Origin: an uncultured Parachlamydiaceae bacterium
GTDB taxonomy: Bacteria; Chlamydiota; Chlamydiia; Chlamydiales; Parachlamydiaceae
Assembly (NCBI GenBank): GCA_963752155.1
Contig: CAVVXH010000005.1
Location: 64,001 to 128,000 of the forward strand
DNA length: 64,000 bases
Direction of reading: 5' to 3'
Below the pieces are notes generated by a model. That model made no database searches. It was not told where the DNA came from and saw nothing but the letters and a program-made list of their open reading frames with translations. Of this stretch, positions 26,095-47,792 are shown in pieces. The first letter of the stretch is position 1; each line of letters starts with the position of its first letter. A program made the position numbers and the translations under genes.

Positions 26095-26967
26095 ATGATC
26101 GAGGAATATATTTATAAGACTACAGCTTTAATTAATAACCATTTAGATACTCTTTTAGCAGAGCATGATGTTCCCTACAATCAACTATTTAAGGCAGCAC
26201 GTTACGCTGTTCTTGGAGGCGGAAAGAGGCTCCGACCACTATTAGTCTTATCTGCAGCAGAAGTTTGCAATGGTTTTATTTCAAAGGCTCTATCCGCTGC
26301 TTGTGCTATAGAAATGATTCATGCTTATTCTCTTATCCATGACGATCTTCCATGCATGGATGATGATGATTTTCGTCGCGGTAGACCTTCTTTACATAGA
26401 GCCTTTCCTGAAAGTCTTGCTGTACTAACCGGCGATTTCTTATTGACATATGCCTTTGAAATAATTTCAAAAGATCCTTTACTTTCTCCAGAAATAAAAA
26501 TTAAGCTGATTAACTTACTTTCTCATAATGCTGGAGGCCATGGGATGATTGCTGGCCAAGTCATGGACATTGAAGCTGAAGGCAAACTATTAGACCAATC
26601 GGCCTTAGAGGAGTTGCATCGTTGTAAAACAGGCGCTTTGATAACAGCTGCTGTAGTAATGGGAGGGATCGTTGCAGATGCTGAAGAATCGACGCTTGAG
26701 ATTCTCCGTTCTTTTGGTAGGGATATCGGTTTAGCTTTTCAAATCGAAGATGATCTATTAGACCTCACCGCAAGCGTTCAAAAACATGGCAAAGCAACTT
26801 CTTCAGATGTTGCTCACAATAAGATGACTTATGTCAAACTTTGGGGAATCGATAAAACCCAAGCAGCTGTCAAAACTTTAAAGCTTTCAGCTAAACATCA
26901 TTTGCAAAAGCTGCCAACCGACTGTACTCTTCTTTTTGAACTCACCGACTACATACTTGATCATTAA
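26095..26967 (+). CDS. ispA: Farnesyl/geranylgeranyl diphosphate synthase
   Basis: GGKRLRP, SLIHDDLPCMDDDDFRRG, KTGALI, FQIEDDLLD. Confidence 0.93.
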   Translation: MIEEYIYKTTALINNHLDTLLAEHDVPYNQLFKAARYAVLGGGKRLRPLLVLSAAEVCNGFISKALSAACAIEMIHAYSLIHDDLPCMDDDDFRRGRPSLHRAFPESLAVLTGDFLLTYAFEIISKDPLLSPEIKIKLINLLSHNAGGHGMIAGQVMDIEAEGKLLDQSALEELHRCKTGALITAAVVMGGIVADAEESTLEILRSFGRDIGLAFQIEDDLLDLTASVQKHGKATSSDVAHNKMTYVKLWGIDKTQAAVKTLKLSAKHHLQKLPTDCTLLFELTDYILDH

Positions 26968-26992
26968 AAAAATTCAGACGACAAGGGATAAA

Positions 26993-27532
26993 ATGGAAAA
27001 TAGTCAACACGATGAATACATTATTCTTGTAGATCTAAATGATAATGAAATCGGTACGGTGGAAAAAATTACTGCTCATCGAGAAGCTCTATTACATAGA
27101 GCCTTTTCTGTATTTATTTTTCGCAAGAATAAAAATAACGTTGAACTGCTTCTACAAAAACGTCATTCGAAAAAATACCATTGTGGAGGTCTTTGGACTA
27201 ACACATGTTGTAGCCATCCTCATAAGGGAGAAGAGCTTGCTGTATCAGCACAAAGGAGATTAAAATTTGAAATGGGAATAGAGACCCCATTAAAATTAAT
27301 CGGAAAATTTCATTATAGTGTAGAATTTGAAAACGGACTCACTGAAAATGAAATTGACCATGTTCTAGTGGGGATGTTTCAAGGAGAAGAGATCAATGTT
27401 AATCCTGAAGAAGTTGAAGATATCCGTTGGATTGACCCAGTTATATTACAACAAGATCTATTGAAAAATCCAAAAAGATATACGTTTTGGCTTTCGCAAG
27501 CATTAAAATTGGCCCTCACTGCTATTCATTGA
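26993..27532 (+). CDS. idi: Isopentenyl-diphosphate delta-isomerase type 1
   Basis: LLHRAFSVFIF, WTNTCCSHP, ENEIDHV. Confidence 0.95.
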   Translation: MENSQHDEYIILVDLNDNEIGTVEKITAHREALLHRAFSVFIFRKNKNNVELLLQKRHSKKYHCGGLWTNTCCSHPHKGEELAVSAQRRLKFEMGIETPLKLIGKFHYSVEFENGLTENEIDHVLVGMFQGEEINVNPEEVEDIRWIDPVILQQDLLKNPKRYTFWLSQALKLALTAIH

Positions 27533-45610: not shown

Positions 45611-46647
45611 AAACTTGCGTCACTTAAATGATTGGCTTTTTGGAGTGAATGGTGGATACGTATGATGGCTTCATTATTCTGAGCATATAGCATAGAGTCT
45701 TTTAGAGTTTTTGCCACTTCAATTTTAGAAATTGCGACTTTAGTGTCACTCTTAAAAATGTCACCATTCCCTTCAGTATATTTTAAGGTTTTGACTCCCA
45801 TCCACATCGGAATGAGAAGAAATAATCTTACAGATTTTAAACTTGGAGGTACATGCAGAACATATTCTAGTGCTCCATCAAGGAGCTCATAAGCTTTCTT
45901 ATAGATGACTGATAACATCTGATGCGCTTGCTTTTGTTTGGTGGGATCGGAGAGGGATTTATAGTTCATCTCCGGCACCAAGGATCGAGGAATAAAAGAA
46001 TAGTTGTTCTTGAGATCCTTTCCAATATCTTTGAGGATATTAACTAATTGAAGTCCCACACCGAATGATTCGGCATAATCGCGCATTGCTTTCTTATTAT
46101 TATCATCAAAGGCTTCGGGATTTTCGAGGATGAACAATTCTGTTAATAAGTAGCCAACCGTGCCTGCGACAAAATAGCAATAGCGGTAGAGGTCATTAAT
46201 GTGCATAAGGGCATGGATTCCATCTCCACCCACTGGTCGATGGCTATAAATTTCCATGCCGCGACACATTTCCATAACCCATTGGTGACAAATACTCTGT
46301 ATCTTTTCCGATTTACGATTCAGAATATTTAATACACGTTCCATATGTATTGCTAAAAAGACTTCGGATTCACTTCCGGACAATCCCTGGACGCTTTGCG
46401 ACCATTCTTTGCGAGAAATTTTTCCAAGGAGAAATTGGCGAAAATTTTCATAGAGAACTTCTCGTTGATCAATAGGAAGTTTGGGATCATCTTCAATAGT
46501 ATCGACAATACGGCAAAGGAGGTAAGCGCAAGTCACACTTTCGCATAATTCTTTATCAAGCATAGAAATCGGCAATGCAAAGGAACGCGAAACTTCTTTT
46601 AAGCTCTTTACGCAAAATTCCCAATCTGTTTTTGTATCTGATGTCAT
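45607..46647 (-). CDS. Squalene synthase (single-enzyme FPP-to-squalene type)
   Basis: VSRSFA, YLLCRIVDTIEDD, YCYFVAGTVG, GLQLVNILKD. Confidence 0.88.
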   Translation of the reverse strand: MTSDTKTDWEFCVKSLKEVSRSFALPISMLDKELCESVTCAYLLCRIVDTIEDDPKLPIDQREVLYENFRQFLLGKISRKEWSQSVQGLSGSESEVFLAIHMERVLNILNRKSEKIQSICHQWVMEMCRGMEIYSHRPVGGDGIHALMHINDLYRYCYFVAGTVGYLLTELFILENPEAFDDNNKKAMRDYAESFGVGLQLVNILKDIGKDLKNNYSFIPRSLVPEMNYKSLSDPTKQKQAHQMLSVIYKKAYELLDGALEYVLHVPPSLKSVRLFLLIPMWMGVKTLKYTEGNGDIFKSDTKVAISKIEVAKTLKDSMLYAQNNEAIIRIHHSLQKANHLSDASL

Positions 46648-46802
46648 ATAATTTCACTCTATTAGAAAGGCAAGTACTAACTAGAGTCACAGAATGCCCT
46701 TATAATGTCAAATTACTTTAAAAAAAATATGTAGTAAATGTAATTTTTTTTTACTATTAGTTAAGATGGAATACTGTTAAATTTATAGAGTAAGGAGATG
46801 TC

Positions 46803-47792
46803 ATGGTTACAAGATTTTACCTTAAGCAGATTCCGAAGAGCTGGTATGCTCTCGCAAGATCTTCAGATTTACCCCCAGGAAAAATTCTCACCAAAAAATT
46901 GGCAGGCCAAGATCTAGTCTTGTTTCGTACATTCTCAGGAAAAATATGTGCAATGGATGCATATTGTGCTCATTTAGGAGCTCATTTAGGTTATGGAGGG
47001 TCTATTCAGGGAGAACTGATTCAATGTCCATTCCATGCCTTTTGTTTTGATATTCAAGGGCAATGTGTTAGAGGAGCCACTGATAAAGCAAGCTGTGGCA
47101 AGTGTAAAATTAACACATGGCATGCACAAGAGGTCAATGGTTTTGTTTTGGTCTACTATGGGGGTGATCATGGGGAGGCTCCAACTTGGCATGTTCCGGC
47201 TTTGGATAATAAAGATTGGTCTCCGATTGTTGGATATCAAACGTTTTCTCTTGCATCACATCCTCTGGAAATCGTAGAGAATTTTTTTGATAAGAGACAT
47301 TTGTCATCTTTGCATGGATTGAATTCCGTTAAAATTATAAGGGATTTCATATCGATGGGTCCCTCTTCGTCAATCCGATATCAAGCCAATGGTTCTTTTG
47401 CTTTTGCAGGATTTAAACCTTCGAGTGATGCTGATGTGGCTGCTGAATGTTGGGGATTGGGTTATCATTTTTCAGAAAATACAGTAAAAAGTTACGGGAT
47501 AAAATTTCGTATTTTTTTCTCAGCTGTTCCGATTGAAGCCAATCATGTTCAATTATCGATTGCTTTTTCATTTTATGATAAGTTTACAGTTCAAAATCCT
47601 TTACTGCGGTGGATTCCGACATTACTTTTCAAGAAAGCGATCTTTATGGCAGTGCAAAAGCAAGCTGTTCATACGGTTCAAGAAGACTTCGAGATTTGGG
47701 AGCATAAAACATTTCTCACTGAACCTCCATTACTTCGCGATGAGCACCCTATTTCAGAATATCGGGAATGGGCTCGACAGTTCATCAGTTAG
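46803..47792 (+). CDS. Rieske non-heme iron oxygenase (KshA/Neverland-like)
   Basis: CAHLGA...CPFH Rieske ligands; ENFFDKRHLSSLH iron site; EDFEIWEHK, YREWARQF. Confidence 0.88.
   Translation: MVTRFYLKQIPKSWYALARSSDLPPGKILTKKLAGQDLVLFRTFSGKICAMDAYCAHLGAHLGYGGSIQGELIQCPFHAFCFDIQGQCVRGATDKASCGKCKINTWHAQEVNGFVLVYYGGDHGEAPTWHVPALDNKDWSPIVGYQTFSLASHPLEIVENFFDKRHLSSLHGLNSVKIIRDFISMGPSSSIRYQANGSFAFAGFKPSSDADVAAECWGLGYHFSENTVKSYGIKFRIFFSAVPIEANHVQLSIAFSFYDKFTVQNPLLRWIPTLLFKKAIFMAVQKQAVHTVQEDFEIWEHKTFLTEPPLLRDEHPISEYREWARQFIS

Follow-up and report, generated by a model that had tools for sequence, protein, structure and literature searches.

A candidate mosaic pathway for C30 hopanoid synthesis in the genome of an uncultured member of the Parachlamydiaceae

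Canonical hopanoid (hpn) loci are known from Rhodopseudomonas, Zymomonas, Methylobacterium and Bradyrhizobium, and chlamydiae are textbook lipid scavengers, which take sterols from their hosts. Here, we analysed a stretch of 64,000 nucleotides from an uncultured Parachlamydiaceae bacterium (assembly GCA_963752155.1, contig CAVVXH010000005.1, positions 64,001 to 128,000), which is referred to as the window and in which genes for a squalene synthase (SQS), a squalene-hopene cyclase (SHC), enzymes of the mevalonate pathway, an exporter and a Rieske oxygenase are found between positions 26095 and 47792. For the Waddlia genome, a complete mevalonate operon has been described, along with no more than one non-mevalonate gene (PMC2878342). 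The accessible text of a second study states that sterol synthesis is not known from any chlamydia and describes a functional chlamydial sterol methyltransferase (PMC10070321), and a third reports an 'SHC-like' clade of unknown function in bacteria of the Planctomycetes-Verrucomicrobia-Chlamydiae (PVC) group, the Chlamydiae being mentioned once in its available text, in this context (PMC12414744). A preliminary description of the locus, made from the DNA letters alone, had allowed for the cluster being already characterised; in the literature collection that we searched, we found no paper on hopanoid synthesis by chlamydiae or on a polycyclic triterpenoid of chlamydial make, the main text of a survey of the distribution of triterpene synthesis, in the form available, does not contain 'chlamyd' (PMC7306690), and squalene, terpene, hopan-, mevalonate and isoprenoid do not occur in the available text of PMC9666466.

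We propose, with a probability of about 0.7, that this region contributes to a mosaic but functional C30 hopanoid route composed of native and foreign genes. In this route, isopentenyl diphosphate (IPP) and dimethylallyl diphosphate would be derived from the retained methylerythritol phosphate (MEP) pathway, a possible second source being a lower mevalonate route, consisting of 3-hydroxy-3-methylglutaryl-CoA (HMG-CoA) reductase (HMGR), mevalonate kinase (MVK), phosphomevalonate kinase (PMK) and diphosphomevalonate decarboxylase (MvaD), without an HMG-CoA synthase (HMGS) of its own. Idi and the housekeeping enzyme IspA would then provide farnesyl diphosphate (FPP), which a single-enzyme SQS would convert to squalene, and SHC would cyclise squalene to the C30 hopanoid diploptene or diplopterol. 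Extended bacteriohopanepolyols are not expected, since HpnH (TIGR03470) had no match in the assembly, which is rated 80% complete. We infer the enzyme activities and the lipid product from the encoded proteins, and the hopanoid could serve as a membrane-ordering sterol surrogate. For this analysis, open reading frames (ORFs) were listed, those of the window of at least 100-120 amino acids were scanned against Pfam, and NCBIfam scores were compared with the curated cut-offs. The genes of the proposed route are located in the window as follows:

26095..26967, plus strand: ispA, FPP synthase (NF045485, 332 bits, cut-off 275; Pfam polyprenyl_synt)
26936..27532, plus strand: idi, type 1 IPP isomerase (NF002995, 151 bits, cut-off 127), overlapping the end of ispA
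30893..32812, minus strand: SHC (TIGR01507, 660 bits, cut-off 431), first gene of a series continuing with genes for an ABC transporter ATPase (ABC), an outer-membrane factor (OMF) and a GH130-like protein
41486..42484, minus strand: mvaD, diphosphomevalonate decarboxylase (TIGR01240, 264 bits, cut-off 171)
42486..43370, minus strand: divergent GHMP kinase of 294 amino acids, probable PMK, in a conserved operon slot
43371..44687, minus strand: class II HMGR (TIGR00532, 313.7 bits, cut-off 260)
44699..45610, minus strand: MVK (TIGR00549, 128 bits, cut-off 163)
45607..46647, minus strand: single-enzyme SQS (Pfam SQS_PSY, 134 bits), first gene of the mevalonate operon

All of these ORFs, and with them every gene that the preliminary description had named, proved to be intact in the ORF listing and the family scans, and the pathway ORFs between 26095 and 47792 are full length and free of internal stops. 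The cyclase is, as judged from its sequence, a bona fide DXDD squalene-hopene cyclase with a predicted activity from squalene to hopene or diplopterol. In addition to its TIGR01507 score, it contains the Pfam domains SQHop_cyclase_N (327 bits) and SQHop_cyclase_C (442 bits), and its residues 30-635 align with residues 18-629 of the Alicyclobacillus enzyme (PDB 1gsz) with an E-value of 2.6e-143. A DVDD motif, which presumably provides the proton donor as the DXDD motif of this family does, aligns with D374-D377 of 1gsz, and F365, W489, Y495, F601, F605, L607, Y609 and Y612, which are residues of the catalytic cavity, are identical in the two proteins.

Squalene would be supplied by the product of the gene at 45607..46647. 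The best PDB matches of this protein are the eukaryotic squalene synthases 7wgh, 3asx and 1ezf and not CrtM or phytoene synthases, and it shares the first Asp-rich motif, DTIEDD, with 7wgh. CrtM and HpnD match residues 150-250 only, with 44-61 bits, and the HpnC and HpnD equivalog models remain far below their cut-offs (TIGR03464, 42.6 bits vs 250; TIGR03465, 60.6 bits vs 279). A tblastn search did not reveal a second SQS_PSY gene in the genome, HpnE not being among the genes searched for. The statement of the preliminary description that hpnH, hpnG, hpnN and squalene epoxidase are missing from the window is borne out, as Pfam found no radical-SAM/HpnH, PNP_UDP/HpnG, RND/HpnN or squalene epoxidase domain among the scanned ORFs. 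The 3' end of the SQS gene overlaps the start of the MVK gene by 4 bp, which shows tight integration into the operon and a predicted translational coupling of SQS to MVK.

To place these genes in the phylum, we used a sample of 401 evenly drawn Chlamydiota genomes, including the genome under study, G000. SHC is rare in this sample and was found in five genomes only, namely G000 and all four genomes of genus g52, which belongs to family f15 and has genomes of 1.4 Mb; it is missing from the other genomes of the G000 family (0/46), the same-genus genome G133 included. The G000 and g52 cyclases are 35-37% identical, and the g52 cyclases place the G000 protein approximately 110th of 120 matches. 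The closest homolog of the G000 SHC in a collection of 5.8 billion proteins is 51% identical, and a scan of genome contigs yielded only two distant loci, in metagenome-assembled genomes of Isosphaeraceae and Chloroflexia, with 40-49% identity. In a tree of 58 rows, made up of G000, the four g52 sequences and 53 of the 119 non-self matches, the G000 SHC is located inside a 17-row clade of metagenome sequences (SH-aLRT 99) and the g52 proteins group with four other sequences (SH-aLRT 99). Forcing all five chlamydial cyclases into one clade cost 54 log-likelihood units and was rejected (p-AU 0.0036). As judged from these comparisons, the G000 SHC is foreign, is independent of the g52 SHC and represents a lineage-specific gain. 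We also considered that the chlamydial cyclases might belong to the 'SHC-like' clade (PMC12414744), and rejected this, as the proteins of both chlamydial lineages score above the hopene-cyclase cut-off (576-580 bits with TIGR01507 in g52) and have kept the DxDD motif.

SQS-like genes are present in ten of the 401 genomes, that is in G000, in all four g52 genomes (32-35% identity) and in three others (31-33%), the remaining two being short and weak matches. In the protein collection, one homolog with 84% identity is encoded on a separate public contig of 1.5 kb, which indicates that a close relative exists; the next homologs are at most 51% identical, and the named relatives, with approximately 40% identity, are from Myxococcota, Polyangiales and Bradymonas. 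With the nearest SHC coming from metagenome clades and the nearest named SQS relatives being of Myxococcota type, the horizontal assembly that the preliminary description had suspected agrees with our results, in the form of a mosaic. Among the homologs is also a metagenome protein of 530 amino acids (P0245, on a 2.1-kb contig) with both SQS_PSY and squalene-hopene cyclase Pfam domains, which may represent a fusion of SQS with SHC or else a truncated gene call. We further inspected 80 metagenome loci with SHC relatives (997 kb), five of which have an SQS-like neighbour; Rieske, FtsX, adaptor, OMF, ispA or mevalonate genes were found beside the cyclase in none of them (0/80). Since no locus of an SHC relative shares these neighbours, the arrangement was built in this lineage and not imported as a block.

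Within the mevalonate operon, the gaps apart from the SQS/MVK overlap are 0-11 bp. The HMGR aligns over its full length with the class II structures 6dio and 1qax, and the active-site blocks are kept with respect to 6dio. The 294-residue ORF has no Pfam or NCBIfam match; GHMP-type motifs are visible when it is aligned with its orthologs from the identical operon slot of G115 and G367, it resembles GHMP and PMK clusters of the protein atlas at 0.96-0.98, and a comparison with the MVK family by hhalign gave an E-value of 1.4e-4 over 250 columns with a probability of 53%. Based on the operon slot, the motifs, the atlas likeness and the hhalign result, this protein is probably a divergent GHMP kinase, most simply a phosphomevalonate kinase. 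The matches of its family to PDB profiles were weak (mevalonate kinase 2hfs, E 0.069; Lin0012 protein 3k17, E 0.11), and an AlphaFold model made from a three-sequence alignment had a mean pLDDT of 53.8 and was too poor for use.

Seven of the 401 genomes encode an HMGR: G000, the same-family genomes G115 (64% identity) and G367 (61%), three genomes of family f12 and one of family f31. The identities to the G115 and G367 orthologs are 60-62% for MvaD, 48% for MVK and 48-51% for the GHMP kinase. As far as these orthologs tell, the mevalonate operon is shared by members of the family and patchily inherited. The gene order in G115 and G367 is HMGS-(thiolase, in G367 only)-MVK-HMGR-GHMP kinase-idi-MvaD; in G000, the HMGS slot is occupied by SQS, and idi has moved beside ispA. 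The preliminary description had implied that the mevalonate pathway is used instead of the MEP pathway. This is not the case, as both MEP genes that were searched for are present in G000 above their cut-offs (dxr, 460 bits vs 316; ispH, 328 bits vs 188). Elsewhere, dxr scores above the cut-off in G367 and below it in the g52 genome G292 (277 vs 316 bits), and G115, G044 and G206 gave no match.

From left to right, the region consists of ispA and idi, the SHC-ABC-OMF-GH130-like unit, further exporter genes, an interruption, the SQS-mevalonate operon and a divergent Rieske gene. As the preliminary description had it, the genes do lie within 26095-47792; the notion of one cluster has to be modified, since the stretch comprises three transcription units and is not a single operon, with an IS607/TnpB copy and unrelated ORFs in between. 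The interruption between the SHC/exporter part and the mevalonate/SQS part is made up of ORFs at 36671-37441, the insertion sequence (IS) at 37626-39678 and ORFs at 39779-41232; the three interrupting ORFs, one in the first and two in the second of these intervals, are unrelated to the pathway. The ispA gene, listed as part of the cluster in the preliminary description, is present and intact. It encodes the only FPP synthase of G000, the other prenyl synthase match, on contig C4, being 35% identical, and is therefore a housekeeping gene and not specific to the cluster. The interrupting element and the right boundary of the locus are:

37626..39678, minus strand: IS607-family element, with tnpA at 39064-39678 and tnpB at 37626-39080 (NF033518, 216 bits, and TnpB families)
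47904..48187, no strand: palindromic repeat of approximately 280 bp with two arms of approximately 100 bp, right boundary of the locus

G000 contains six full IS607 copies, counting the one in the locus, and one degraded copy on contig C10. The other five full copies are located on C1, C8, C10 (two) and C11, with tnpB 97.5-98% and tnpA 99-99.5% identical, and the element looks recently active. Both arms of the palindromic repeat match dozens of sites on both strands in the same-genus genome G133. Just left of ispA, at 24520-25479 of the window, a choloylglycine-hydrolase-family (CBAH) protein is encoded, of which approximately the first 124 of 316 profile positions match, and to the right of the locus, at 48363-49463, a 366-residue protein with a zf-MYND finger (Pfam). 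The zf-MYND finger is of eukaryote type, and eukaryote-like domains are typical of amoeba symbionts. According to Pfam, the remaining ORFs of the window encode ordinary transporters and housekeeping proteins.

Several observations weigh against a functional hopanoid route. The position of His451 of 1gsz is taken by an Arg in the G000 SHC, as it is without exception in its ten closest relatives. With TIGR01559, which is still its best-scoring family, SQS reaches 133.6 bits, below the cut-off of 286.75, and its second Asp-rich motif reads DIGKD where 7wgh has DVRED, so that both Asp residues are kept and the Glu is changed to Lys. MVK likewise falls below its TIGR00549 equivalog cut-off (128 vs 163 bits). 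HMGS was not found in the 3.13-Mb assembly, either with PF08540 or by tblastn with the HMGS of G115 and G367 (best E 0.053), although it adjoins the operon in all five other mevalonate-bearing chlamydiae, and a thiolase was not found in the assembly either. The pathway can therefore not be called self-contained, as it was in the preliminary description, and given these two missing enzymes the mevalonate half may be idle or decaying. In addition, the active IS disruption and the scrambled exporter operon could equally mark a decaying region. At a completeness rating of 80%, the absence of HMGS and thiolase from G000 is unproven, and the failure to find HMGS suggests that the gene lies in unassembled DNA, that the operon is an idle remnant or that HMG-CoA or mevalonate is salvaged from the host.

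If salvage takes place, HMGR, MVK, PMK and MvaD would convert host HMG-CoA or mevalonate into precursors for squalene and the hopanoid, and the MEP pathway would serve the housekeeping isoprenoids. Such a division of labour would be in line with the failure of both profile and tblastn searches to detect HMGS, with the presence of SQS in its slot and the 4-bp overlap of this gene with MVK, with the four remaining mevalonate genes being intact and keeping their catalytic motifs, and with the presence of MEP genes. However, HMGS may simply be located in unassembled DNA, idi being an example of a gene that has changed its place in the locus, a candidate transporter did not emerge, and G367 has both pathways together with HMGS, so that their coexistence alone does not require salvage. 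We therefore regard salvage as rather unlikely. A further scenario is that the locus is a decaying remnant, in which the operon lost its first enzyme, IS elements and inversions broke up the region and the pathway is partly or wholly dead. The missing HMGS and thiolase, the six full and one degraded IS607 copies, the scrambling of the exporter with respect to five relatives and split genes close by and in other parts of the genome (RmuC at 2883-4030; a TLC copy interrupted by stop codons) would all be expected from such a process, whereas full-length, stop-free pathway ORFs with conserved motifs, an SQS that appears translationally coupled to MVK and a locus of fully native composition would not, and we judge decay to be improbable. 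A mosaic but functional route remains our preferred reading.

A different concern is that the triterpenoid genes derive from another organism through contamination or a chimeric contig, and the preliminary description had itself raised a chimeric or non-chlamydial contig as an objection. The G000 assembly consists of 3.13 Mb in 22 contigs and is rated 4% contaminated in addition to its 80% completeness, and the first 10 kb of C5, the contig that contains the window, are compositionally foreign. This segment lies outside the window; its GC content is 0.51, its tetranucleotide composition correlates with that of the remaining genome at 0.42, and it could represent foreign or mobile DNA or an erroneous join at the end of the contig. 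The locus itself, in contrast, is located approximately 90-112 kb into the 197.6-kb contig, and three 10-kb windows across it have tetranucleotide correlations of 0.985, 0.976 and 0.973, compared to a mean of 0.971 (sd 0.018) for 283 windows of the other G000 contigs. It is interleaved with orthologs from the chlamydial family: the exporter and the mevalonate operon both have same-family orthologs, which ties the contig to the chlamydiae, and positions 49.6-54 kb of the window have 66-67% DNA identity with three same-family genomes. Its IS607 copy is shared with four other contigs and its repeat with the same-genus G133. The assembly itself already implies continuity from SHC to chlamydial core genes on its flanks. 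Given the native composition, the shared IS607 copies, the shared repeat and the same-family orthologs, chimerism is very unlikely; contig C5 belongs to G000, and the probability that contamination explains the triterpenoid genes is close to negligible.

The genome is chlamydial, as had been assumed. It encodes the Hc1 histone-like protein (69 bits, cut-off 23.5), which was also matched in nine of ten relatives, six TLC/NTT nucleotide transporter matches, five of them free of internal stops, and a 16S rRNA gene on contig C10 containing, with one mismatch, the site of a chlamydial 16S probe. Chlam_OMP6 reached only 22.9 bits, which is under its cut-off. G000 is an environmental chlamydia, and the genomes of its family have sizes of 2-3.6 Mb. 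Two broken genes were observed in this assembly. RmuC, at 2883-4030 of the window, is split into two overlapping ORFs that cover profile positions 2-137 and 143-288 and may be a frameshifted gene or an assembly error, which may bear on the completeness rating. The broken TLC match (C9:16805-18270) consists of two separated pieces, the second of which contains a TGA and a TAA.

The genes of the exporter and its neighbours are located between idi and the interruption:

27526..28527, minus strand: GH130-like protein (Pfam Glyco_hydro_130, 30.9 bits), last gene of the SHC-ABC-OMF unit
28558..30060, minus strand: OMF of the NodT/TolC type (TIGR01845, 296 bits, cut-off 210; Pfam OEP)
30129..30809, minus strand: ABC ATPase, MacB/LolD/DevA-like (Pfam ABC_tran)
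32983..33903, plus strand: HlyD-type periplasmic adaptor (Pfam HlyD_D23 and HlyD_3), inverted relative to ABC and OMF
33900..35414, plus strand: membrane protein with two cNMP-binding domains and an Rce1/CPBP-like part (Pfam cNMP_binding, Rce1-like)
35439..36593, minus strand: FtsX/MacB-type permease (Pfam FtsX, MacB_PCD)

The exporter that the preliminary description had noted is thus present, in the form of a tripartite ABC system of four parts and not of a single gene. From its distribution, we conclude that it is a native, family-wide system. Five same-family relatives without SHC have exporter orthologs that are 33-64% identical, with 55-64% for ABC (5/5), 49-57% for the adaptor and 33-53% for OMF (4/5), in the collinear order FtsX-ABC-adaptor-OMF, one of the contigs ending before OMF. 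The permease was matched in 45 of 61 family genomes, the best class being 49-55% identical. The cNMP/CPBP gene is often found alongside the exporter in the five relatives, adjoining the operon in G122 and G239, and SHC never is; the GH130-like gene, which has a 42% identical paralog elsewhere on C5, does not accompany the exporter in any of the five (0/5). In G000, the system is rearranged, in that the adaptor and cNMP genes are inverted and SHC precedes ABC and OMF.

Since the exporter is present in relatives without SHC, it cannot have evolved for hopanoids, and the export of a hopanoid, as put forward in the preliminary description, is called into question. This leads to an explanation in which the hopanoid core is real and both the exporter and the Rieske oxygenase are unrelated to it: the exporter would keep its native cargo, possibly a peptide or a bacteriocin-like molecule, the Rieske enzyme would act on host sterols, as its homologs in chlamydiae without SHC would have to, and the adjacency of the genes would be a result of IS-driven rearrangement. 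For the exporter, this is consistent with its collinearity and wide occurrence in the family and with the cNMP/CPBP neighbour, which weakly matches a bacteriocin-transport-associated family (TIGR03896, 66 bits, below the cut-off). On the other hand, SHC forms a closely spaced series on one strand with its downstream genes, with gaps of 83 bp to ABC, 68 bp to OMF and 30 bp from there to the GH130-like gene. The position of SHC ahead of the exporter ATPase and OMF genes might therefore have a functional meaning, and, judging by this adjacency, we put the chance that the exporter moves the hopanoid at well under one half.

The Rieske gene is located on the other side of the SQS operon, from which it diverges:

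46803..47792, plus strand: KshA/SdmA-like Rieske non-haem iron oxygenase (Pfam Rieske, 71 bits; KshA_C, 77 bits)

Its best PDB match is KshA (4qdf), with which it aligns along its length, including the CxH/CxxH cluster ligands and the His-His-Asp iron site. With the SdmA model NF052579, it reaches 52 bits (cut-off 600) over the N-terminal half only. The homologs in the collection of 5.8 billion proteins are 27-40% identical, the closest 39-40%, and are labelled as KshA or cholesterol 7-desaturase in their source records. No reductase partner was found in the window with Pfam; the sole PF00175 match in G000 is an FNR-type FAD_binding_1/NAD_binding_1 protein on contig C6. A promoter-terminator scan of the 155-bp spacer between the Rieske and SQS genes was uninformative, with eight promoter-like sites vs 6.0 expected.

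Searching the 401 genomes with the Rieske protein gave 33 matches, of which seven are full-length KshA-like proteins (33-35% identity, E <=1e-47), one is a split copy and the others are short Rieske-domain matches; the full-length and split homologs all come from chlamydiae without SHC. A tree of 44 rows was built from G000, four full-length chlamydial homologs and 39 of the 41 database matches, two of fewer than 290 residues having been dropped, and it leaves out the chlamydial homologs G062, G350 and G381 and the split G267. In this tree, G000 and the same-family G095 fall into one 13-row clade (SH-aLRT 98), and the three other chlamydial proteins form a neighbouring group (SH-aLRT 88), with long branches and an unresolved inner order. 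The G095 gene is part of a sterol-type cluster (C120:13001-29000, at approximately 3200-11800), together with genes for a P450, two CMAS/sterol-methyltransferase-like proteins, a GT28/GT1 glycosyltransferase, a 3beta-HSD-type dehydrogenase and a Steroid_dh protein of the 5alpha-reductase family. This cluster recalls the functional chlamydial sterol methyltransferase described in the accessible text of PMC10070321. The Rieske neighbours in G092, G389 and G316 are mostly housekeeping genes and bear no relation to sterol chemistry. A sterol-modification cluster like that of G095 was considered for G000 and rejected, only the Rieske gene having a G095 counterpart.

From these neighbourhoods, chlamydial members of this Rieske family are linked to the chemistry of polycyclic triterpenoids, and not specifically to SHC. 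As homologs occur in chlamydiae without SHC, host sterols are as open a substrate as the hopanoid of the bacterium itself, and the G000 enzyme may use either; the modified hopanoid of the preliminary description is to be qualified in the same way. The G095 context and the occurrence in SHC-less genomes thus favour an oxygenase unrelated to the hopanoid core, whereas the 155-bp divergent spacer shared with the SQS operon argues for a connection, as does the lack of the other G095 cluster genes in G000, which leaves SQS and SHC as the sole triterpenoid context of the enzyme in this genome. With the adjacency to SQS as a guide, oxidation of the hopanoid by this enzyme has a likelihood well under one half, and in the literature collection searched we found no paper that links a Rieske enzyme with hopanoid tailoring. 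Taking exporter and oxygenase together, an explanation in which both are bystanders of a real hopanoid core is a serious one, to which we give somewhat less than even odds.

The boldest version would bring all of these parts together. One might speculate that HMGS was exchanged for SQS, that HMG-CoA or mevalonate of the host is turned into the hopanoid, that the Rieske enzyme oxidises this product, e.g. at a C-4 methyl group, which is where SdmA acts on sterols, and that the co-opted ABC/TolC system carries the product on to the outer membrane or the inclusion. We consider this to be a long shot. If true, the bacterium would have a sterol surrogate fuelled by its host, and its Rieske enzyme would be the first for which hopanoid tailoring is known.

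For the hopanoid route as we propose it, what is new is a pathway in a phylum from which it is nearly absent, and its mosaic make-up, with a mevalonate operon that has lost its head gene and a native exporter in rearranged form. The occurrence of an SQS and SHC pair in a chlamydia of the amoeba-associated type, and independently in g52, suggests that certain chlamydiae may produce a sterol surrogate themselves. The locus moreover gives a view of how a pathway may be assembled inside the genome of an obligate intracellular bacterium, with a replaced operon head, a cyclase inside a native exporter operon and an active IS in between. In addition, the G000 Rieske protein is a candidate triterpenoid-tailoring oxygenase, and its family is represented in a sterol-modifying cluster of another chlamydial genome.

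Compared with known systems, the mevalonate part is closest to the operons of Waddlia and of G115 and G367, with which it shares the order MVK-HMGR-GHMP kinase-MvaD and, in the case of G115 and G367, 48-64% identity. In those operons, HMGS is at the head and idi inside, whereas G000 has SQS instead and idi beside ispA; the Waddlia-like G044 and G115 have no dxr match, whereas G000 keeps dxr and ispH. The exporter resembles MacAB-TolC and DevBCA-HgdD in combining an FtsX/MacB_PCD permease, an ATPase, an HlyD adaptor and a NodT/TolC-type OMF. It differs from them in that the DevA, DevB and DevC scores lie below their cut-offs (214 vs 296, 43 vs 129 and 62 vs 290 bits), as does that of the ABC ATPase for the LolD equivalog, and in that the gene order is broken, with SHC ahead of ABC. 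The Rieske protein shares the Rieske and KshA_C domains with KshA (4qdf), SdmA of Methylococcus and the Neverland-type cholesterol 7-desaturases, and its metal ligands align with those of KshA; it differs in being no more than 27-40% identical to anything in the protein collection and in having no adjacent reductase.

With regard to the hopanoid core, only the g52 genomes, apart from G000, encode a bona fide SHC in the sample of 401, and they also have an SQS-like gene. With its reduced 1.4-Mb genomes, this genus is a further candidate for hopanoid production among the chlamydiae, independent of G000. In g52, however, SHC stands alone, flanked by yebC-like and acyltransferase/RNase G genes and with the MEP gene ispD nearby, the SQS-like gene is located on another contig, and a Rieske homolog was not seen in the three of four genomes that were queried directly, none of the four appearing among the matches of the phylum search. 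The canonical hpn loci share with G000 a DXDD SHC that acts on squalene derived from FPP. They make squalene via HpnCDE, whereas G000 would use a single SQS; HpnH was not found in G000, and HpnG- and HpnN-type domains are missing from the window. In contrast to these loci, the G000 cyclase gene forms a unit with ABC/TolC exporter genes, at a distance of approximately 9 kb from a mevalonate operon.

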